Shown here one piece after another: positions 4,990-43,639 of a DNA stretch of 64,000 bases. Location of the stretch: the NCBI RefSeq assembly GCF_041886205.1, contig NZ_CP169029.1, one strand, 5' to 3'. The DNA comes from Escherichia coli. Its GTDB lineage: Bacteria > Pseudomonadota > Gammaproteobacteria > Enterobacterales > Enterobacteriaceae. The stretch's first letter is position 1. The number at the start of each line of letters is the position of its first letter. The notes under the pieces are model-generated. The model was given only the letters and a program-made list of their open reading frames with translations. It made no database searches and was not told where the DNA came from. Made by a program: the position numbers and the translations under genes.

Positions 4990-6351
4990 GTGGAAAAAGA
5001 AAATATCACCCTCGATCCGCGTTCTTCATTTACTCCATCTTCGTCGGCAGATATTCCCGTGCCACCAGATGGATTAGTTCAACGCAGTACCCGAATTAAA
5101 CGCATTCAAACCACCGCCATGTTGTTATTATTTTTTGCGGCGGTAATCAATTATCTCGACCGCAGTTCGCTGTCGGTAGCAAATTTAACGATTCGTGAAG
5201 AATTGGGATTAAGTGCCACCGAAATCGGCGCTTTGCTCTCCGTGTTTTCACTCGCTTACGGCATTGCGCAACTTCCTTGCGGCCCACTATTGGATCGTAA
5301 AGGCCCACGCCTGATGCTGGGACTGGGGATGTTCTTCTGGTCACTGTTCCAGGCCATGTCTGGCATGGTGCACAGCTTTACGCAGTTCGTGTTGGTGCGT
5401 ATCGGTATGGGGATTGGTGAAGCGCCGATGAACCCATGCGGTGTAAAAGTCATTAACGACTGGTTCAACATCAAAGAGCGCGGACGCCCGATGGGCTTCT
5501 TCAACGCAGCTTCTACCATTGGCGTTGCCGTAAGCCCACCGATTCTGGCGGCGATGATGCTGGTGATGGGCTGGCGCGGGATGTTTATTACCATTGGTGT
5601 ACTGGGGATTTTTCTCGCCATCGGCTGGTATATGCTCTATCGCAACCGCGAGCACGTAGAACTGACTGCCGTTGAACAAGCTTATCTCAATGCAGGTAGC
5701 GTCAATGCCCGCCGAGATCCGCTCAGTTTTGCCGAATGGCGCAGCTTGTTCCGTAACCGCACAATGTGGGGAATGATGCTCGGATTCAGTGGCATCAACT
5801 ACACTGCGTGGCTGTATCTGGCCTGGCTTCCTGGTTACCTGCAAACAGCCTATAACCTGGATTTAAAAAGCACAGGGTTGATGGCGGCTATCCCTTTCCT
5901 GTTTGGGGCTGCCGGGATGCTGGTCAACGGTTACGTTACCGACTGGCTGGTCAAAGGGGGAATGGCTCCGATTAAAAGCCGTAAGATCTGCATTATTGCC
6001 GGGATGTTCTGTTCTGCCGCCTTTACGCTGATAGTACCACAAGCGACAACATCCATGACGGCGGTTCTGCTGATTGGCATGGCACTGTTCTGTATTCACT
6101 TTGCCGGAACATCCTGCTGGGGCTTGATCCACGTCGCAGTTGCTTCTCGCATGACTGCGTCGGTGGGCAGTATCCAGAACTTTGCCAGCTTCATCTGCGC
6201 CTCTTTCGCGCCGATCATTACTGGTTTTATTGTTGATACCACCCACTCATTCCGTCTGGCACTAATCATCTGCGGTTGCGTCACCGCAGCGGGGGCACTG
6301 GCGTACATCTTCCTGGTTCGTCAGCCGATCAACGACCCACGTAAAGATTAA
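4990..6351 (+). CDS. lgoT: MFS-family L-galactonate:H+ symporter
   Basis: 453 aa, GTG start, 12 predicted TM segments, MFS signature region GPLLDRKGPR. Confidence 0.82.
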   Translation: MEKENITLDPRSSFTPSSSADIPVPPDGLVQRSTRIKRIQTTAMLLLFFAAVINYLDRSSLSVANLTIREELGLSATEIGALLSVFSLAYGIAQLPCGPLLDRKGPRLMLGLGMFFWSLFQAMSGMVHSFTQFVLVRIGMGIGEAPMNPCGVKVINDWFNIKERGRPMGFFNAASTIGVAVSPPILAAMMLVMGWRGMFITIGVLGIFLAIGWYMLYRNREHVELTAVEQAYLNAGSVNARRDPLSFAEWRSLFRNRTMWGMMLGFSGINYTAWLYLAWLPGYLQTAYNLDLKSTGLMAAIPFLFGAAGMLVNGYVTDWLVKGGMAPIKSRKICIIAGMFCSAAFTLIVPQATTSMTAVLLIGMALFCIHFAGTSCWGLIHVAVASRMTASVGSIQNFASFICASFAPIITGFIVDTTHSFRLALIICGCVTAAGALAYIFLVRQPINDPRKD

Positions 6352-6360
6352 TCTCCCTAT

Positions 6361-6394
6361 GCCCGATAACATTTTGCTTATCGGGCATTTTTAT
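6361..6394 (+). terminator. Rho-independent terminator after lgoT
   Basis: gcccgataa / cattttgc / ttatcgggc hairpin followed by atttttat. Confidence 0.7.
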
Positions 6395-6399
6395 GGCGA

Positions 6400-8064
6400 T
6401 TAAAACGTTTCCCAGTTCTCACCGCTATCTGCCACGGCCATTTTACGCGGCGCAGCTGGCATCACGGTTTTTACCACAGCCGATGTTTCACGCTGCTGTT
6501 GCTGCTGTTGCTGAATCCGGAACACTGCCACAGCTTCGGTCAGGCGACTGGCCTGCTCTTCCAGCGCGGCGGCGGCAGCGGCAGACTCTTCCACCAACGC
6601 GGCGTTCTGTTGAGTTACCCGGTCCATCTCAGCAACCGCTAAGCCAACCTGATCGATACCGCGGCTCTGCTCATCAGAAGCAGAAGCAATTTCGCCCATA
6701 ATGTCCGTCACGCGGGTCACGGCGCTGACAATCTCCGCCATTGTTTCCCCGGCGCTTTCGACCAGCGTAGAGCCAACATCCACTTTCCCCACCGAGTCTT
6801 CAATCAGGCTTTTAATTTCACGAGCCGCCTGGGCGCTGCGCTGGGCCAGATTACGCACTTCACCCGCGACCACCGCAAAACCGCGCCCTTGCTCACCCGC
6901 ACGCGCAGCCTCAACCGCCGCGTTCAAAGCCAGAATATTGGTCTGGAAGGCAATGCCGTCAATTACGCTGATAATATCGGCGATTTTCTGCGAACTGGTG
7001 GAAATATCGCGCATAGTCTGCACCACGTTATCTACCACTTTGCCGCCGCGTTGCGCCGTTTCAGAAGCACTTAACGCCAGGTGGCTGGCCTGGCGCGCAT
7101 TCTCGGCGTTCTGTTTCACCGTTGCGGTCAGTTGCTCCATGCTGGCTGCCGTCTCTTCCAGCGAAGCGGCCTGTTGCTCGGTGCGCGAAGAGAGATCGTT
7201 ATTGCCGGTGGCGATTTCGCTGGCACCGCTATAGATGGCATTGGCCCCGTTGCGCACATCACCGACGGTACGCATCAGCTCTCCCTGCATATGGCGCAAA
7301 CTCTCTGCCAGTTGCCCCATCTCATTAGAGCCATCCACCTCAATCGGTTTCACCAGATCGCCGCCTGCAATATGACGAATGCTGTCAATCAGGCGATTCA
7401 TTGGCGCTACCAGCGAGGCTTTAATACCGAACCAGACGGCGAAGATGACCGCCAGTACGACGATCATCACGCCCACCAGAATCCACATCGCCTGGCTGTA
7501 GGAGGCATTGTTATCGCTGACGGCGATATCATAGAGCCGATCGTTTTGCTCCATGTAAGCCACATACTGCTTCTCGAAACCGTCCTGATATCCCTGGGTC
7601 GGCTGATCAAAGAACTCGTTGATTTTGCCTGCACCTAACAGTTGGATCAGCTCCGCCAGCGCATTGTGATAAATATCGTAATTACGTTTGATCTCTGCCG
7701 CTGCGGCGGTGCTCTGACGCGGGTCACGCGGCAACGCTTCGTAATCCGCCCAGTTTTTTTCCGCCTGTTTCAGCGAAATACTGGCACTCTGCATCAGCTC
7801 AGCAACGGTTGAACCGCTACCAATATTATTCTGATCCATCATGTAGCGGATACCCGCGCGGTTGAGGGTGTTACGCGTCTGCAACAACGCGACCCAGCTG
7901 CCATTCAGCGTGGATTGCTGCTGGCGAATGGTTTGTAAAACAGTGAAATTTTCTTTGTCATTCTTTAAGGCATTAAAGAACAGACCGCCTGATGTCAGTT
8001 GTAAAAGGCCAAAAACGGCCAAAACCAGCAGTAAGCTGGTCACGATCTTGATACGTTTTAACAT
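6400..8064 (-). CDS. tsr: Methyl-accepting chemotaxis protein I (serine chemoreceptor)
   Basis: 554 aa; two TM segments, HAMP, highly conserved MCP signalling core ([37 protein letters not shown]), C-terminal NWETF pentapeptide; contains a 7-Gln tract near the C-terminus. Confidence 0.92.
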
Positions 8065-8122: not shown

Positions 8123-8292
8123 TAGGTAGCGACTTGAAACTGGTTAATTTTACCTCACTTTTTTAATTTTTGTTCAAAAATACAATAACCACTTATTGAT
8201 ACATTTTCTTTTCTTATTTTTTTCACACGAATTGTATCTATTTTGAACGAAATATTTTATAGAGTGTGGAATTTTAAGAAAGGACATCTGAA

Positions 8293-8835
8293 ATGTTAAA
8301 CCGTGACTTCGATCATCTCTCAACGCTATTACATCTCTTTTTTGAACGTGAGGATATTTGCCAAAAGCTTAATATTATTGACCAAAACAATATCACCGGT
8401 TGGGAAGTGTGGTTCCAGGTAGAATTTGCTAATATGCTCTGCTCAACAGACCATGAATGGTGGCGTGAACAGGCACTTTCCTGTGATATGCGCAAAAAAC
8501 CTGAACGCCCGACACTACGCACAGATTTCTTACTACGTAAAAAAGGCTGGGCGCAAGATAGCTATATCGCGCTTGAAATAAAACAAAACAGTGACGCGAC
8601 CAGTTGTGTTAAAAATATGATCGCAGACTTAGAAAAAAGCGCCAAAATCAAACGTTCAGAACTCGAGTTACGCAGTTTCTGGACCCTGGGTATCACCCCT
8701 GTGATAGACAGAGAAAGGCTGGATTCTCTCATCGATTGCTATTTAGATGAGAAATTTTATCTTACTAAATCTCGTAAAAAACACGTTTTACTTAAAGAAA
8801 TAAATAATACACCATATTCCTATATTGTTATTTAA
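8293..8835 (+). CDS. Hypothetical 180-aa protein with PD-(D/E)XK-like motif, AT-rich
   Basis: 543-nt ORF in strongly AT-rich DNA where long ORFs are unlikely by chance; AAGGA upstream of ATG; motif D(TDFLL)...E-I-K (YIALEIKQ) spaced like a PD-(D/E)XK nuclease core; I do not recall a gene between tsr and btsT in K-12. Confidence 0.5.
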   Translation: MLNRDFDHLSTLLHLFFEREDICQKLNIIDQNNITGWEVWFQVEFANMLCSTDHEWWREQALSCDMRKKPERPTLRTDFLLRKKGWAQDSYIALEIKQNSDATSCVKNMIADLEKSAKIKRSELELRSFWTLGITPVIDRERLDSLIDCYLDEKFYLTKSRKKHVLLKEINNTPYSYIVI

Positions 8836-8943
8836 TATTTATAGCATGAATATAATTTTTATATGAGTTACACAACCGAGGGCTAAAAATCGCTTCGGTT
8901 GTGATCATCATCACATAAATAACCTTCATAAACCTTGCTCAAA

Positions 8944-11541: not shown

Positions 11542-12498
11542 ATGAACCCGATTGCAGTTACCCTACTCACCGGTTTTTTAGGCGCGGGAAAAACCACCCT
11601 GCTGCGCCATATTCTTAATGAACAACACGGCTACAAGATTGCCGTGATTGAAAACGAATTCGGCGAAATCTCCGTTGATGATCAATTGATTGGTGATCGC
11701 GCAACGCAGATCAAAACGCTGACCAACGGCTGCATCTGCTGTTCGCGCTCCAACGAGCTGGAGGACGCGCTACTCGACCTGCTGGATAATCTCGACAAGG
11801 GCAATATTCAGTTCGATCGTCTGGTCATTGAATGCACCGGCATGGCCGATCCCGGCCCGATTATTCAGACCTTTTTCTCCCATGAGATTTTATGCCAGCG
11901 CTACCTGCTGGACGGCGTGATTGCGCTGGTGGATGCGGTACATGCCGATGAGCAGATGAACCAGTTCACCATCGCCCAGTCACAGGTTGGCTACGCCGAC
12001 CGTATTCTGCTGACTAAAACCGACGTCGCAGGCGAAGCAGAAAAACTGCGTGAACGCCTGGCGCGCATCAACGCCCGTGCACCGGTCTACACCGTTACCC
12101 ACGGCGACATCGACCTGGGCCTGCTGTTCAACACCAACGGTTTTATGCTGGAAGAAAACGTCGTCAGCACCAAACCGCGTTTCCACTTTATCGCGGATAA
12201 ACAAAACGATATTTCGTCGATTGTGGTGGAACTGGATTACCCGGTAGATATCAGCGAAGTTTCCCGGGTGATGGAAAACCTGCTGCTGGAATCGGCGGAT
12301 AAACTGCTGCGTTACAAAGGGATGCTGTGGATTGACGGCGAACCTAACCGCCTGCTGTTCCAGGGCGTCCAGCGCCTCTACAGCGCCGACTGGGACAGGC
12401 CATGGGGCGATGAAAAACCGCATAGCACGATGGTGTTTATCGGGATTCAGTTGCCGGAGGATGAGATTCGGGCAGCGTTTGCGGGGTTGAGGAAGTAA
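11542..12498 (+). CDS. yjiA: CobW/G3E-family metal-binding GTPase
   Basis: 318 aa from ATG 11542; P-loop GFLGAGKTTL, CxCC metal motif (NGCICCS); stop of yjiX 10 bp upstream. Confidence 0.85.
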   Translation: MNPIAVTLLTGFLGAGKTTLLRHILNEQHGYKIAVIENEFGEISVDDQLIGDRATQIKTLTNGCICCSRSNELEDALLDLLDNLDKGNIQFDRLVIECTGMADPGPIIQTFFSHEILCQRYLLDGVIALVDAVHADEQMNQFTIAQSQVGYADRILLTKTDVAGEAEKLRERLARINARAPVYTVTHGDIDLGLLFNTNGFMLEENVVSTKPRFHFIADKQNDISSIVVELDYPVDISEVSRVMENLLLESADKLLRYKGMLWIDGEPNRLLFQGVQRLYSADWDRPWGDEKPHSTMVFIGIQLPEDEIRAAFAGLRK

Positions 12499-12832
12499 TT
12501 ACCTTAACCTACTCATACGAAGCGGACGAGGATAAAATCCTATCATTTTCCGTTCGCTTCATTATTTTATTTTCTTTCCAATGCCCATTCAAATTAAAAA
12601 TATAACTCTGCCATAACTTCCTGAACACAGATGTAATTACATTGCCACCTCTCATACTTTTAAAAACGATCCATATGACAAGTCGTCCTATTGGGGCGTG
12701 ATAGATGTATTAATTTCCAAATATGCAAACATTCTGATACAGTCCCAAAAAGAAAATAATTACCAACCCAGATAATCAGCAAATAAATTAATGACAGTTG
12801 AATTATAATCAACACGAATACAAGAGATTAAC

Positions 12833-14683
12833 ATGGCAACAATAATCCCAACAATCAGTAGCTGCAACGATAAAATTACTGCCGGAGAGAAAAGGCTGGC
12901 AAGAATTCTGGAAAGAGGACTAGGCGAAGAGTGCTGCTGTTGGTATGACATTCCCACGGGTGATAAGCATCTTCACCCAGATTTTATGATACTTTCGCCA
13001 GAAAAAGGCATTATTTTTCTCGAGGTAAAAGATTGGTTTATTACAAAAATAAAAAAAGCCAACAAGTCTAATGTGTGGTATGAGACACAAAATGGCATTC
13101 AATCTTTAAAGAATCCGATAGAACAAGTTAGGCGATATGCTTTCGAAGCTGTAAACCAGTTAAAAAAAGACCCCCTATTGCGCCAACAGGATGATCGTTA
13201 CAATGGCAATCTTCTTTTCCCCTATGGATATGGCGTCTACTTTAGTAATATTACACGAGAAGCATTAAATAATAAATTTACTCAAGAAGAGCTGCTCGGG
13301 ATCTTCCCATCAGATCTCATCATCTGCAAAGACGAACTAAATGAATTCATGTCAAAAGAGGATGTTTCATCTAAAATACATTCGTTAATTAAATATGACT
13401 TCAAATGTCATGCTACACAAGAACAGTTGAACAGGATTAGATGGCACTTATACCCCGATGTCAGAATAGAAAGGGAAAAGAGAAGTAAAAACCGTGATGA
13501 ATTGAGTGTCGATGCACCAACCATCATTTCTATCCTGGATACTCAACAGGAACAACTTGCCAGGAGTATGAGAGATGGCCACCGAATCATTCATGGTGTT
13601 GCAGGTTCAGGGAAGACATTGATCCTCTATCATCGCTGTCAGGAATTAGCGAAAAAAAATGACAGCGAAAAGCCAATACTTGTCATTTGCTACAATATTA
13701 CTTTAGCCAAAAAACTTCGGTCGATGTTCATCAATCATCCCTTTGCAGAGAAAATAAAGGTTAAAAATTTTCATGCATGGTGTTTCCAACAAATTAAAGA
13801 AAACAAGATCACCATTCCAGAAGGGGATAATATTTTTGAAAATATGGAGCAAGCGTTGACTGATGGTTTCAACACAGGAAAAATAAAACCAGAACAATAC
13901 AGCGCTGTATTAATTGATGAAGGACATGATTTTAAGCCCGAATGGTTAAAAATCCTTGCAAAAATGACTGACTCTCAGGACGAGAATTTGCTATTCCTTT
14001 ATGATGATGCTCAGTCAATTTACCAAAAAAAGAAAGCATTAGACTTTACACTGTCCAGCGTAGATATTAAAGCGACAGGGCGCACAACTATTCTTAATAT
14101 AAATTATAGAAACACACAGCAAATCCTACACTTTGCCAGTTGCATTGCATTTAATTATCTTAATAGCCATATCGATAGTTCTTTAACCTATCATAAACCT
14201 GCTGCGGGAGGAATGAATGGCGATTATCCCAACCTTGAACATTTCGACACACAGGACGAAGAAATAGCAAGAGCAGTCAAATGGATTACAGAGCAAAATG
14301 AACAAGGGATTCCGTGGTCTGAAATTGCTATACTAAGTCCATCAACTCATACCCTTTCTAACTCTCTAAGTTCTGTACTTGAATCGAAAAACATCCCCTT
14401 TAATCTTATTGTAAGCTCTGCAGATAAAAAATCCTGGACGCCAGAACAAGAGCGTGTTTCTGTGATGCCATTACCCAGCAGCAAAGGGCTTGAGTTTCAC
14501 TCAGTTGTCATTATTGACGCAGCGAGAACACGGGATAATAGCGATGATTTGAGTGAGGATATAAAGAGACTCTATGTAGGTTTTACCCGAGCACGTTGCA
14601 ATCTCTTGGTAACCTTGCACGGTGAAGGTGCGTTAAATGAGCATCTACTAAAAACCTATGAGCAAAGCCCACAATATATGTAA
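12833..14683 (+). CDS. NERD-domain nuclease fused to SF1 (UvrD-like) helicase; Nhi-like candidate anti-phage protein
   Basis: 616 aa; N-terminal NERD-like region with PD...(E)VK core (HPDFMIL ... IIFLEVKDW); Walker A GVAGSGKT, Walker B VLIDEGHDF, SF1 motif V/VI-like LPSSKGLEFHSVVII and LYVGFTRARCNLLV; AT-rich; occupies the slot that holds mrr-hsdRMS in K-12. Confidence 0.75.
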   Translation: MATIIPTISSCNDKITAGEKRLARILERGLGEECCCWYDIPTGDKHLHPDFMILSPEKGIIFLEVKDWFITKIKKANKSNVWYETQNGIQSLKNPIEQVRRYAFEAVNQLKKDPLLRQQDDRYNGNLLFPYGYGVYFSNITREALNNKFTQEELLGIFPSDLIICKDELNEFMSKEDVSSKIHSLIKYDFKCHATQEQLNRIRWHLYPDVRIEREKRSKNRDELSVDAPTIISILDTQQEQLARSMRDGHRIIHGVAGSGKTLILYHRCQELAKKNDSEKPILVICYNITLAKKLRSMFINHPFAEKIKVKNFHAWCFQQIKENKITIPEGDNIFENMEQALTDGFNTGKIKPEQYSAVLIDEGHDFKPEWLKILAKMTDSQDENLLFLYDDAQSIYQKKKALDFTLSSVDIKATGRTTILNINYRNTQQILHFASCIAFNYLNSHIDSSLTYHKPAAGGMNGDYPNLEHFDTQDEEIARAVKWITEQNEQGIPWSEIAILSPSTHTLSNSLSSVLESKNIPFNLIVSSADKKSWTPEQERVSVMPLPSSKGLEFHSVVIIDAARTRDNSDDLSEDIKRLYVGFTRARCNLLVTLHGEGALNEHLLKTYEQSPQYM

Positions 14684-39926: not shown

Positions 39927-40763
39927 ATGGATGACTGTGGTGCGATTTTGCATAATATTGAAACCAAATGGCTTTATGATTTTCTGACCCTGGAAAAATG
40001 CCGCAATTTTTCCCAGGCGGCAGTCAGTCGCAACGTCTCGCAACCGGCATTCAGCCGCCGCATCCGTGCGCTGGAACAGGCGATTGGTGTTGAATTGTTT
40101 AACCGCCAGGTAACGCCGCTGCAACTCTCAGAACAAGGGAAAATCTTCCATTCGCAGATCCGCCATCTGTTGCAACAGTTAGAGAGCAATCTGGCAGAGC
40201 TGCGTGGCGGCAGCGATTACGCGCAACGAAAAATCAAGATAGCCGCTGCACACTCTCTTTCCCTCGGGCTGTTACCGTCCATTATCAGCCAGATGCCGCC
40301 GCTCTTTACCTGGGCAATTGAAGCTATTGATGTCGATGAAGCGGTCGATAAACTGCGTGAAGGGCAAAGTGACTGTATTTTTTCCTTTCACGACGAAGAT
40401 TTGCTGGAAGCGCCGTTTGACCACATTCGCTTATTTGAATCTCAATTGTTCCCTGTCTGCGCCAGTGACGAACACGGAGAAGCACTTTTTAACCTCGCGC
40501 AGCCACACTTTCCGTTACTGAATTACAGCCGCAACTCCTACATGGGGCGATTGATTAATCGCACCCTGACGCGCCACAGTGAGTTAAGTTTCAGCACCTT
40601 TTTTGTCTCTTCGATGAGCGAGCTTTTAAAGCAGGTTGCCCTCGACGGCTGTGGGATTGCCTGGCTGCCGGAGTACGCCATCCAACAAGAAATTCGCAGC
40701 GGGAAGCTCGTTGTACTGAATCGGGACGAACTGGTGATCCCGATTCTGGCCTATGCATACTGA
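39927..40763 (+). CDS. hypT: LysR-family hypochlorite-responsive regulator, C-terminally truncated allele
   Basis: LysR wHTH (LEKCRNFSQAAVSRNVSQPAFSRRIRALE); ORF ends at TGA 40761-40763 and the same frame continues for 24 more sense codons ([24 protein letters not shown]) before the next stop; 278 + 1 + 24 = 303, the length I recall for HypT. Confidence 0.75.
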   Translation: MDDCGAILHNIETKWLYDFLTLEKCRNFSQAAVSRNVSQPAFSRRIRALEQAIGVELFNRQVTPLQLSEQGKIFHSQIRHLLQQLESNLAELRGGSDYAQRKIKIAAAHSLSLGLLPSIISQMPPLFTWAIEAIDVDEAVDKLREGQSDCIFSFHDEDLLEAPFDHIRLFESQLFPVCASDEHGEALFNLAQPHFPLLNYSRNSYMGRLINRTLTRHSELSFSTFFVSSMSELLKQVALDGCGIAWLPEYAIQQEIRSGKLVVLNRDELVIPILAYAY

Positions 40764-40830
40764 ATGAATACCCGCATGAATCCAGTTGCCGAACGCTTCT
40801 GGCGTGAACTGCGCGAGCTGGAGATTGTAC

Positions 40831-41223
40831 TTAGCTGACATTCTCCAGCGTCGCACTACGCCAACCGCCATTATCCCAGACCAGATCAAACGTTAGCGGT
40901 TCATCGTCGTGGTACAGCATTATCTCAAGGCTGATCGCCAGCGTGTGACTGTACGCTTCTTTCAGATTGACCTGCAACGCCGCAATCCGTGGCTCATGAA
41001 ATAACAGTGCAGAACGCAGCTGACGGCAATACCAGCTCTGGAGATGTTTGTCGCTCTGGTTATGCACTTGCCACTCGGGCATGCCTGAAACAAGTAATGA
41101 CGGTAATGCCGAAAGAGGAGAATTAAAAAGAGTGAGGAGATCGCTGCATACCGATTTACGCAGCAATGACGTTTTATTGCCTGAAATTTTAGGTAAAACA
41201 GCCTGAAGTGATTGGCGCATCAT
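40831..41223 (-). CDS. iraD: Anti-adaptor protein stabilising RpoS
   Basis: 130 aa from [11 protein letters not shown]; synteny between hypT and yjiC. Confidence 0.78.
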
Positions 41224-41894
41224 TTTGCGCACTCCTGACGTTTAGCAACATATGCGGCTTGCCCTGAACACCGGGCACCACTGTATTGATGCTCATTTTC
41301 CATAGCCATTCCCTTTTGTTCATTACATCCATGTCAGTCTGAGACAGGCCTGAATCCTGTCAGCAAAGTATAAAACCTTACTTGCCTATGAATATCTACT
41401 GACTTTTCAGGAAAAAAGTCATGATTTGATAAAAATCATCAAACTCAAAAAAAAACCGCTAGTATATTCTGAATATTCCGAATAGTTACGTAGATGAAAA
41501 TACTTGTCACCGCCGCTACTTAATTCCGGTTGGAAATTATTTATTTCCGCATAATCATCTATGTATTATTTGAAACAATTAGTTTGTAAATAATATAAAT
41601 TGATAACATATCAAATACATCAAAAATACCATTCACAGGCATTATTAATATAGACCTCAATATAGCAACATCAAATTCCAATTAGTAATAAGATATGCTT
41701 TTAAATTGCATGCAAATAATTTTAAATGAGCGTTTTTTGATACTTTAGAGTGTTTCCTACCATTTAATATCACTGTGTAGAGTTGATATCACTACAACAG
41801 AAACATGCATGTCATTTGTTTACTTCTCTTTTACTACAGAAAAATTTATCTATTTTTCTAAACATCAGTGAAATACTCATAAAAGGTAACTATT

Positions 41895-42725
41895 ATGTCT
41901 ATGCCATTAAGCAATGCCGCTAATAACCAATTCTATATAAATAATCACTTCCTTCATCATCCAAAAGTCGACAATGAGTTAACACGTAAATATGAACGTG
42001 CACGCCTGGATACGGAAAATATCTATCTTCTGCCTCTTACTCGTGGCAATAACCATAATTACGATGGAAAAAGCGTTGTCGAAATTAGAAAACTTGATAT
42101 TAGTAAAGAGTCCTGGCCATTTAATTATGTGACAGAAACATGCAGAGAATCCGATGGTATTACAACAACAGGTCGTATGCTCTATCGAAACTTGCGAATT
42201 ACCTCAGCTTTAGACGAAATATATGGTGGTATATGTAAAAAGGCGCATGCTGCCACAGAGTTAGCAGAAGGATTACGGCTAAATTTATTTATGAAGAGCC
42301 CTTTCGATCCTGTTGAGGACTATACAGTTCATGAAATAACATTAGGCCCTGGTTGCAATGTTCCTGGTTATGCCGGAACCACGATAGGATATATTTCAAC
42401 CCTTCCAGCTTCTCAGGCAAAAAGATGGACCAATGAGCAGCCAAGGATTGATATCTATATTGATCAGATAATGACGGTAACAGGGGTAGCAAATTCTTCC
42501 GGATTCGCCCTTGCCGTATTACTTAATGCTAATATTGAGTTGGGTAATGACCCAATAATTGGTATAGAAGCCTATCCCGGTACCGCGGAGATCCATGCAA
42601 AAATGGGATATAAAGTTATCCCGGGTGATGAAAATGCACCACTCAAACGTATGACTCTGCAACCGTCATCTCTTCCAGAACTGTTTGAATTAAAAAATGG
42701 TGAATGGAATTATATTGGTAAATAA
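41895..42725 (+). CDS. yjiC: Uncharacterised protein YjiC
   Basis: 276-aa ORF in AT-rich DNA preceded by about 650 bp of AT-rich non-coding sequence; synteny. Confidence 0.65.
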   Translation: MSMPLSNAANNQFYINNHFLHHPKVDNELTRKYERARLDTENIYLLPLTRGNNHNYDGKSVVEIRKLDISKESWPFNYVTETCRESDGITTTGRMLYRNLRITSALDEIYGGICKKAHAATELAEGLRLNLFMKSPFDPVEDYTVHEITLGPGCNVPGYAGTTIGYISTLPASQAKRWTNEQPRIDIYIDQIMTVTGVANSSGFALAVLLNANIELGNDPIIGIEAYPGTAEIHAKMGYKVIPGDENAPLKRMTLQPSSLPELFELKNGEWNYIGK

Positions 42726-42865
42726 CTACCAGGAAGAATGAGTACTAACATTCAGGTTATACAGATAGCTAAACAATACCCTGCAATTTACAAAGTAATA
42801 CTCATTGCGACTTCTTAATTTAAGAAAGCGCAAGGAACGTTTACCCTTGCGCTTATTATAATAAG

Positions 42866-43639
42866 TCAGGCGTCGACTTTATCCAGCGGCCATGAATCAA
42901 ACAGATAGCCATCAAAATAAATATCGTCAACGTTCGAGAATTCCAGCAGACGTTGCTTAACGTTTTCCAGATGCTGCCACATTGCCAGCTTCGCCGCTCG
43001 GGCATCTTTTTTGATTAACGCGGCGAGGATCTGTTTGTGATCGCCCAACCACTCTTTGCGATACAGGCTGTCATCCAGATGGCTGTGCAACTGGATCCAC
43101 ATTGGATTGTTTTCCCGCCACTGCCAGGACTGACGGAACAGCTCCACCAGCATGCTGTTATGCGTTGCTTCGGCAATAGCGAGATGGAACTGCATGTCAC
43201 CGCTTTCGCTGCTGCCCGGCGCACTGGAAGCCAGTTCACGCTCTTCCAGTTGCAATGCCTGACGCATTTTGACGATATCTTCGCGGGTAGCCTGCAGGGC
43301 GGCAAACTCGGCGATGTTGCTCTCAAGAAGCTGTCGCGCCTGCAACAGCTCAAAAGGACCCGCATCATTGCAAACGTTGGCATCCGGACTGTCTGTGTTG
43401 TGGCTGCCTGAGCTATCAAGAACATAGATACCGGCACCCCGGCGCACTTCCACCAGCCCTTTGATCTCCAGCATGATCAGCGCTTCACGTACCACCGTCC
43501 GCGTGACATCAAGCATTTCTGCAATTTCACGCTCCGGCGGCAGCCGTTCGCCAGGATTGTACGGCGTCTTTATGATCAGATCGCGGATCATCGCCCCGAC
43601 TTCCTGGTAAGGTCTTTGCGCAGAGGTGGCAGATTTCAT
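42866..43639 (-). CDS. uxuR: GntR/FadR-family repressor of hexuronate utilisation
   Basis: 257 aa; N-terminal wHTH (DVTRTVVREALIMLEIKGLVEVRRGAGIYV) plus FCD domain. Confidence 0.9.
   Translation of the reverse strand: MKSATSAQRPYQEVGAMIRDLIIKTPYNPGERLPPEREIAEMLDVTRTVVREALIMLEIKGLVEVRRGAGIYVLDSSGSHNTDSPDANVCNDAGPFELLQARQLLESNIAEFAALQATREDIVKMRQALQLEERELASSAPGSSESGDMQFHLAIAEATHNSMLVELFRQSWQWRENNPMWIQLHSHLDDSLYRKEWLGDHKQILAALIKKDARAAKLAMWQHLENVKQRLLEFSNVDDIYFDGYLFDSWPLDKVDA

Follow-up and report, generated by a model that had tools for sequence, protein, structure and literature searches.

The AT-rich interval between iraD and yjiC in an Escherichia coli chromosome is very probably a dual-promoter, long-leader control region of iraD

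The DNA analysed here, a 64-kb stretch of the E. coli chromosome (64,000 nucleotides, hereafter the window), carries iadA, hypT (plus strand), iraD (minus strand), a long intergenic gap, yjiC (plus strand) and, on the minus strand, uxuR and uxuB, in this order. The iraD gene (40831-41223, minus strand), identified from its open reading frame and its RefSeq annotation, encodes the 130-residue anti-adapter protein IraD, which shields RpoS from RssB/ClpXP. The product scored 295.6 bits against the NCBIfam model NF010726, for which the cut-off is 198, and also matched the Pfam family GPW_gp25. The divergent neighbour yjiC (41895-42725, plus strand) is an open reading frame of 39% GC for a DUF2686 protein of 276 amino acids (Pfam PF10887, 498 bits); an unrelated glycosyltransferase of Bacillus shares its name. 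With iraD starting at 41223 and yjiC at 41895, the interval 41224-41894 delimited in the initial annotation is exactly the iraD-yjiC intergenic region, which has a length of 671 bp in the window, compared with 672 bp in K-12 MG1655 (NC_000913.3, 4556321-4556992).

This interval was accurately described as very AT-rich: its GC content is 31.7%, the window averages 49.2%, and values this low occur in only 1.3% of all 671-bp windows. The bias is uneven, however, as the 137 nt adjoining iraD (41224-41360) have 48% GC, while the values fall to 29% in 41361-41640 and 26% in 41641-41894, an AT content far beyond the average of the window. The run of nine A residues seen at about 41450 occupies 41447-41455; among the homopolymers of the 64 kb it is the longest. 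Other stretches with a GC content of 36% or less, calculated in 671-bp windows, are located at about 8137-8879, 12485-14432, 26087-28879 and 62243-63404, and the lowest value for any 671-bp window, 29.2%, starts at 26331.

Of 5426 complete E. coli genomes, 4890 contain the iraD-yjiC region at 95% identity or higher, with the genes idlP, ytiC and ytiD annotated under the match. Over the whole intergenic region the window and K-12 differ at seven places (six substitutions and one 1-nt indel). When positions are counted upstream from the iraD start, so that -n corresponds to window coordinate 41223+n, the two are the same base for base from the iraD start to -290, and all differences other than that at 41560 affect codons of ytiD or fall in the part nearer to yjiC.

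Transcription of iraD in K-12 starts at -417 (P1) and -137 (P2), as mapped by the Lovett group (Sass/Lovett, Merrikh/Lovett). At the corresponding places in the window, P1 (41640-41674, minus strand) comprises a start at 41640, a -10 hexamer TATATT at 41652-41647 and a -35 hexamer TTGATG at 41674-41669, and both hexamers were also recovered independently by a generic promoter scan. P2 (41360-41372, minus strand) has its start at 41360 and a -10 hexamer TATACT at 41372-41367; the start nucleotide is an A followed by CA-GGA, in agreement with the location three nucleotides before the GGA of CsrA site BS1 given by Park et al. The predicted start sites and -10 elements of both promoters are identical in sequence to those of K-12. 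In that strain both promoters are induced by the replication inhibitor AZT, repressed by DnaA-ATP and affected by SspA and ppGpp, and AZT raises the expression of ytiC 260-fold, the strongest response of any gene, followed by ytiD (33-fold), idlP (18-fold), iraD (14-fold) and yjiC (11-fold) (PMC11228462).

A DnaA box, TTTTCCATA, is present as an exact match at 41296-41304 (plus strand). This is 'box -81', so placed because it ends at -81, and it has been assayed by mutation and EMSA in K-12 (Sass et al. 2021, Lovett). A second DnaA-box-like sequence, TTATTTACA, was found at 41585-41593 on the minus strand, approximately 50 nt downstream of the P1 start, with 8 of 9 positions agreeing with TTWTNCACA, and this site could be linked to the cooperativity (Hill coefficient 1.7) reported for DnaA binding to the 672-bp fragment. 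Further, an FNR/CRP-like palindrome, TTGATAAAAATCAT, with 9 of 10 consensus bases lies at 41426-41439 (plus strand), its centre ~73 bp upstream of the P2 start, in a block that is partly conserved across Escherichia. iraD is listed among the predicted but unoccupied FNR sites (Myers 2013), an entry that presumably corresponds to TTGATAAAAATCAT.

With these starts, ~62% of the gap (41224-41640) is minus-strand iraD leader, and its iraD-proximal end is occupied by a short gene. The frame of idlP (ORF27; 41220-41303, minus strand), supported by its translation and by RefSeq annotation, encodes a 27-residue leader peptide; it is intact in this strain, and the translated product is identical to WP_120795393. 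A Shine-Dalgarno sequence, AAGGGA, is located 6 nt 5' of its ATG, and its TGA (41222-41220) overlaps the ATG of iraD (41223-41221) in the arrangement ATGA. Translation of ORF27 in K-12 was demonstrated experimentally by Park et al. 2017 in mBio (PMC5574718). The initial annotation had found no credible open reading frame in the interval, a view that is contradicted by idlP and also by ytiC and ytiD, the frames of which are annotated by RefSeq in thousands of genomes.

Park et al. further reported that the ORF27 Shine-Dalgarno sequence is the CsrA site BS3, that the ORF27 stop overlaps the iraD start, and that a hairpin sequesters the iraD Shine-Dalgarno sequence; the repression of iraD by CsrA was shown to proceed entirely via blocked translation of ORF27, a mechanism described by the authors as novel (PMC5574718). 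All four GGA motifs of the CsrA sites are present in the window at their published positions of -134, -107, -89 and -78, a match of sequence to binding data obtained in K-12. BS4 (41299-41301, minus strand), with its GGA at -78 and a K-12 footprint at -78/-77, is a weak site that overlaps the idlP start codon. BS3 (41307-41313, minus strand; GGA at -89) is strong, overlaps the AAGGGA of idlP and is footprinted from -90 to -84, and BS2 (41326-41335, minus strand; GGA at -107) is the critical high-affinity site, as judged from a footprint from -112 to -103 and the effect of mutation. BS1 (41355-41357, minus strand; GGA at -134), three nucleotides past the P2 start, is assigned to P1 transcripts only (Park 2017). 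A fifth GGA at -12, the motif that is not bound by CsrA, is also present.

Minimum-free-energy folding of the leader predicted a hairpin at 41196-41243 (minus strand, -14.2 kcal/mol) that would sequester the iraD Shine-Dalgarno sequence. The support from folding is modest, with z = -1.65 and 11 of 200 shuffled sequences folding at least as well, and the complete P2 leader folded no better than shuffled sequence (z = -0.10). The hairpin was kept in the consensus fold of six Escherichia sequences, in a segment of ~40 nt that is nearly invariant; since every pair is invariant across the genus, covariation lends it no support. In K-12 the structure has been mapped experimentally (Park 2017).

The conservation of these elements was compared within Escherichia, as a scan for IraD in species-representative genomes reached close relatives only. 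The scan recovered IraD relatives with 75-79% protein identity from E. albertii and E. whittamii and from another three divergent lineages of Escherichia. All five have kept the 27-codon idlP frame from a conserved ATG together with the ATGA overlap, and the peptide ends in ...K/CQECAK, while its middle residues vary freely, as would be expected if the act of translation matters and not the peptide. The GGAs of BS2 and BS3 are likewise kept in six of six Escherichia sequences. The weak sites are not kept genus-wide: BS1 is not conserved outside E. coli, and the GGA of BS4 is lost in E. albertii. That idlP and both strong CsrA sites are conserved across the genus supports the model in which translation of iraD is coupled to that of idlP. 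As a separate observation, iraD and its leader (40822-41502) share only 72-78% nucleotide identity with three of the lineages, vs 88-95% for uxuB, uxuR, hypT and iadA (loci L007-L011), which suggests that the iraD cassette evolves fast or has been exchanged.

Between P1 and P2 the leader holds two further frames. That of ytiD (ORF47; 41419-41562, minus strand) includes the A9/U9 run, and that of ytiC (41559-41642, minus strand) overlaps it. Comparison with K-12 revealed that a single substitution in the overlap (41560; C in K-12, T here) affects both, changing TGG to TAG in ytiC, so that the annotated YtiC is shortened from 33 to 27 amino acids, and turning the ytiD ATG into ATA, which leaves ytiD without its ATG. 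The shorter form of ytiC studied by Park et al., ORF23, begins at an internal ATG at 41609 (-386) and comprises 16 amino acids here after the truncation. The start codon of the annotated 33-residue YtiC (41642-41640) coincides with the P1 transcription start at -417, and the N-terminal extension is therefore probably not translated from P1 transcripts; the long form is probably an over-extension. The exact 65-nt allele spanning 41560 is present in 199 other complete genomes.

ytiC and ytiD might be taken to encode functional small proteins, which would make the region in part a small-protein operon. Both ORF23 and ORF47 are translated as lacZ fusions in K-12, ytiC is the gene most strongly induced by AZT, and most E. 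coli genomes have both frames annotated. We nevertheless consider this improbable, given that one substitution disables both frames at once in this strain and in the other carriers of the allele, that E. albertii and E. whittamii have conserved neither frame and show no recognisable counterpart of either, that the start codon of the 33-residue form falls on the P1 start, and that removal of either start codon left iraD expression unchanged in K-12 (Park 2017, PMC5574718). The natural double knock-out fits the latter finding that both open reading frames are dispensable for iraD expression. When IraD, IdlP, YtiC and YtiD were searched against NCBIfam in their window and K-12 versions, only IraD was matched; the other three have no HMMs.

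The AT-rich part of the region corresponds to a known 'promoter island'. Panyukov and Ozoline (2013) described 78 such islands, one of which is a 526-bp island at yjiC(-)/iraD(+) that is associated with predicted foreign genes (PMC3661553). It is listed as 4554354_526 in U00096.2 and corresponds to about 41360-41884 of the window; the coordinates are approximate, being our own conversion (+1977 to U00096.3, then mirrored), and they cover the AT-rich part. The initial annotation had proposed silencing by H-NS, to be checked in H-NS ChIP data from related strains, and the island is marked as H-NS-bound in both the Kahramanoglou (MG1655) and the Oshima (W3110) data sets (PMC3661553, Table 1). The idea thus agrees with published K-12 data, and inhibition of IraD and IraM expression by H-NS has been reported (Battesti et al. 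2012, as cited in PMC6064147). The region resembles other H-NS-bound islands in being AT-rich and in adjoining a gene of low GC content, yjiC. As a class, promoter islands are described as transcriptionally almost silent, whereas this one has two productive and strongly inducible promoters, P1 and P2. A simple sigma-70 scan returned five promoter-like sites compared with 4.9 +/- 2.0 in shuffled sequences, and this lack of excess does not reproduce the island property; the scan is a weak test of promoter-island density because the original definition used PlatProm.

Much of the AT-rich DNA has a restricted distribution in the genus. Both E. coli and E. albertii carry a segment of ~1.37 kb (41488-42865), delimited by BLAST, that includes the 5' half of ytiD, ytiC, P1, yjiC and the spacer between yjiC and uxuR. 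Four other Escherichia lineages (loci L007, L009, L010 and L011) have ~150 unrelated bp in its place. Their homology to the window breaks off at 41487-41502 and is regained only at the uxuR stop (42865/42866); they have no yjiC at all, and a different uxuR terminator. The -10 element of P1 is not conserved in E. albertii, and P1 looks specific to E. coli. A tentative reading, which we regard as possible and not as probable, is that the half of the iraD control region farther from the gene (P1, ytiC and most of ytiD) is non-ancestral and came with, or was built from, the AT-rich yjiC segment. E. coli would then have recruited H-NS-bound, foreign-like DNA as the stress-inducible promoter P1 for a regulator of RpoS, and yjiC might be co-controlled by DnaA, SspA and H-NS through this divergent region. 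ytiC and ytiD would be incidental and dispensable, as is suggested by the double-null allele that this strain carries naturally.

The distribution of the segment also bears on the original interpretation, according to which all 671 bp belong to the plus-strand gene yjiC as its silenced promoter and non-coding 5' leader. yjiC, starting at 41895, does require some upstream promoter, the DNA of 26-29% GC is bound by H-NS in K-12, and yjiC is co-induced by AZT. A yjiC leader of ~670 bp is nonetheless very unlikely, since 417 of the 671 nt are documented to belong to the oppositely transcribed iraD leader that starts at P1 (137 nt in the case of P2) and contain translated open reading frames. Promoter-like matches on the plus strand occur only at 41600-41627 and 41868-41896, and their total is no more than expected by chance. 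Furthermore, the four lineages without yjiC have retained the iraD-proximal ~265-280 bp, and this part therefore serves iraD.

What is left for yjiC is a stretch of ~220 bp with 26% GC (41675-41894), located 5' of both the P1 -35 element and yjiC, in which no element has been mapped and which contains a conserved block, AAAAAACGCTCATTT, in common with E. albertii. No yjiC transcription start was found in the accessible literature, and we infer that the yjiC promoter lies within these last ~220 bp before the gene. It may be speculated that the co-induction of yjiC by AZT reflects shared control of the divergent region. Just inside yjiC, at 41919-41960 (codons about 9-22), the N-terminal part of the protein reads …SNAANNQFYINNHFLHH in the window vs …SNALQSQIITDAHFLHH in K-12, while the upstream DNA is ~99% identical, a pattern resembling that of a recombination breakpoint or of a hypervariable patch.

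The initial annotation had also suggested that the interval could hide a small RNA or a regulatory element controlling yjiC or the divergent iraD. The second part was right in spirit, as this is a known control region of iraD. The first part, an independent small regulatory RNA, appears to us barely plausible. The intergenic region is long, and promoter islands as a class yield very short abortive RNAs of 9-14 nt (Panyukov and Ozoline), but no Rfam family reached even about half of its gathering score. A search of 40500-43000 with Rfam 15 at a permissive E-value gave chance-level matches only, the best of them, to an unrelated model for a eukaryotic snoRNA, scoring 25.5 bits where the threshold is 50. 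Intrinsic terminators were found on neither strand, a stable hairpin is lacking upstream of the U9 run, and conservation outside the iraD leader is poor across the genus. A terminator or attenuator at the U9 run was considered separately and rejected on the scan of both strands together with folding: the folds of 41440-41510 and 41444-41485 (both minus strand) are weak, at -5.6 and -3.3 kcal/mol, and do not surpass those of shuffled sequences.

Taken together, we are highly confident in assigning the region, from its sequence correspondence to K-12, as a minus-strand control region of iraD with two promoters and a long leader, shared head-to-head with yjiC; no observation speaks against this assignment. 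The iraD promoter-leader with its coupling uORF is already known from K-12, where it ranks among the better-studied intergenic regions. Locus and flanking genes are the same in both strains, and the mapped elements (P1, P2, the DnaA box, idlP and BS1-BS4) agree fully in position and sequence. The seven nucleotide differences include the one at 41560 that truncates ytiC/ORF23 and abolishes the ATG of ytiD/ORF47, and despite the loss of these two frames this strain would be expected to control iraD as K-12 does.

In such a model, the steps of which were established by other groups in K-12 for a region of matching sequence, sigma-70 would initiate transcription at P1 (41640), which would be inducible by replication stress and in the late log phase, and either sigma-70 or sigma-S would initiate at P2 (41360). 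Both promoters would respond to ppGpp and SspA, and DnaA-ATP would repress them, partly via the box at 41296-41304, while H-NS would bind the AT-rich DNA and repress iraD. On the RNA, the hairpin would hide the iraD ribosome-binding site, and iraD would therefore be translated only when ribosomes read through the 27-codon idlP frame to the ATGA overlap. CsrA, bound at BS1-BS4 and mainly at BS2 and BS3, the latter covering the idlP Shine-Dalgarno sequence, would block idlP translation, thereby switching iraD off and destabilising the mRNA. ytiC and ytiD would fall in the P1-specific part of the leader, where in K-12 they are translated without an effect on iraD expression. The predicted arrangement has the ATGA overlap and the buried Shine-Dalgarno sequence in common with other coupled leader uORFs that open Shine-Dalgarno hairpins (the class discussed in Park et al. 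2017), but differs in that CsrA acts on the ribosome-binding site of the uORF and not on that of the main gene.

By setting the level of IraD, and thereby the stability of RpoS, the region integrates replication stress (DnaA), starvation (ppGpp, SspA), CsrA and H-NS, as has been established for K-12. What the present analysis adds is new but minor: a natural allele that disables ytiC and ytiD, the genus-wide conservation of idlP, BS2 and BS3, and the location of the P1 half on a lineage-specific AT-rich segment. For annotation, the lesson is that the interval should be described as an iraD leader with uORFs, not as empty DNA upstream of yjiC.

Some observations were made in other strains and in neighbouring genes. 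IS1 is repeatedly found in the AT-rich iraD-yjiC region of other strains (1864-2561 of locus L003 and 5181-6731 of locus L005). Strain F1267, otherwise 100% identical to the window, carries IS1B about where ytiC and P1 lie, and in strain 2018-18.25PC two IS1 copies replace the DNA from ~125 bp upstream of iraD to uxuR, including P2, P1, ytiC, ytiD and yjiC. A 605-bp contig of the Bacillus coahuilensis m4-4 draft genome (L006, NZ_ABFU01000118.1) encodes an IraD 96% identical to that of E. coli and almost certainly represents contamination of that assembly by E. coli DNA. In hypT, the open frame of which spans 39927-40763, a change of CGA to TGA at codon 279 (40761) removes the last 25 of 303 amino acids, and a Q-to-L change lies 14 nt upstream of it (40747); the nearest relatives (L002) and K-12 have intact codons. 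The 65-mer of the hypT allele matched none of the 5426 complete E. coli genomes exactly, and the best match had one mismatch.
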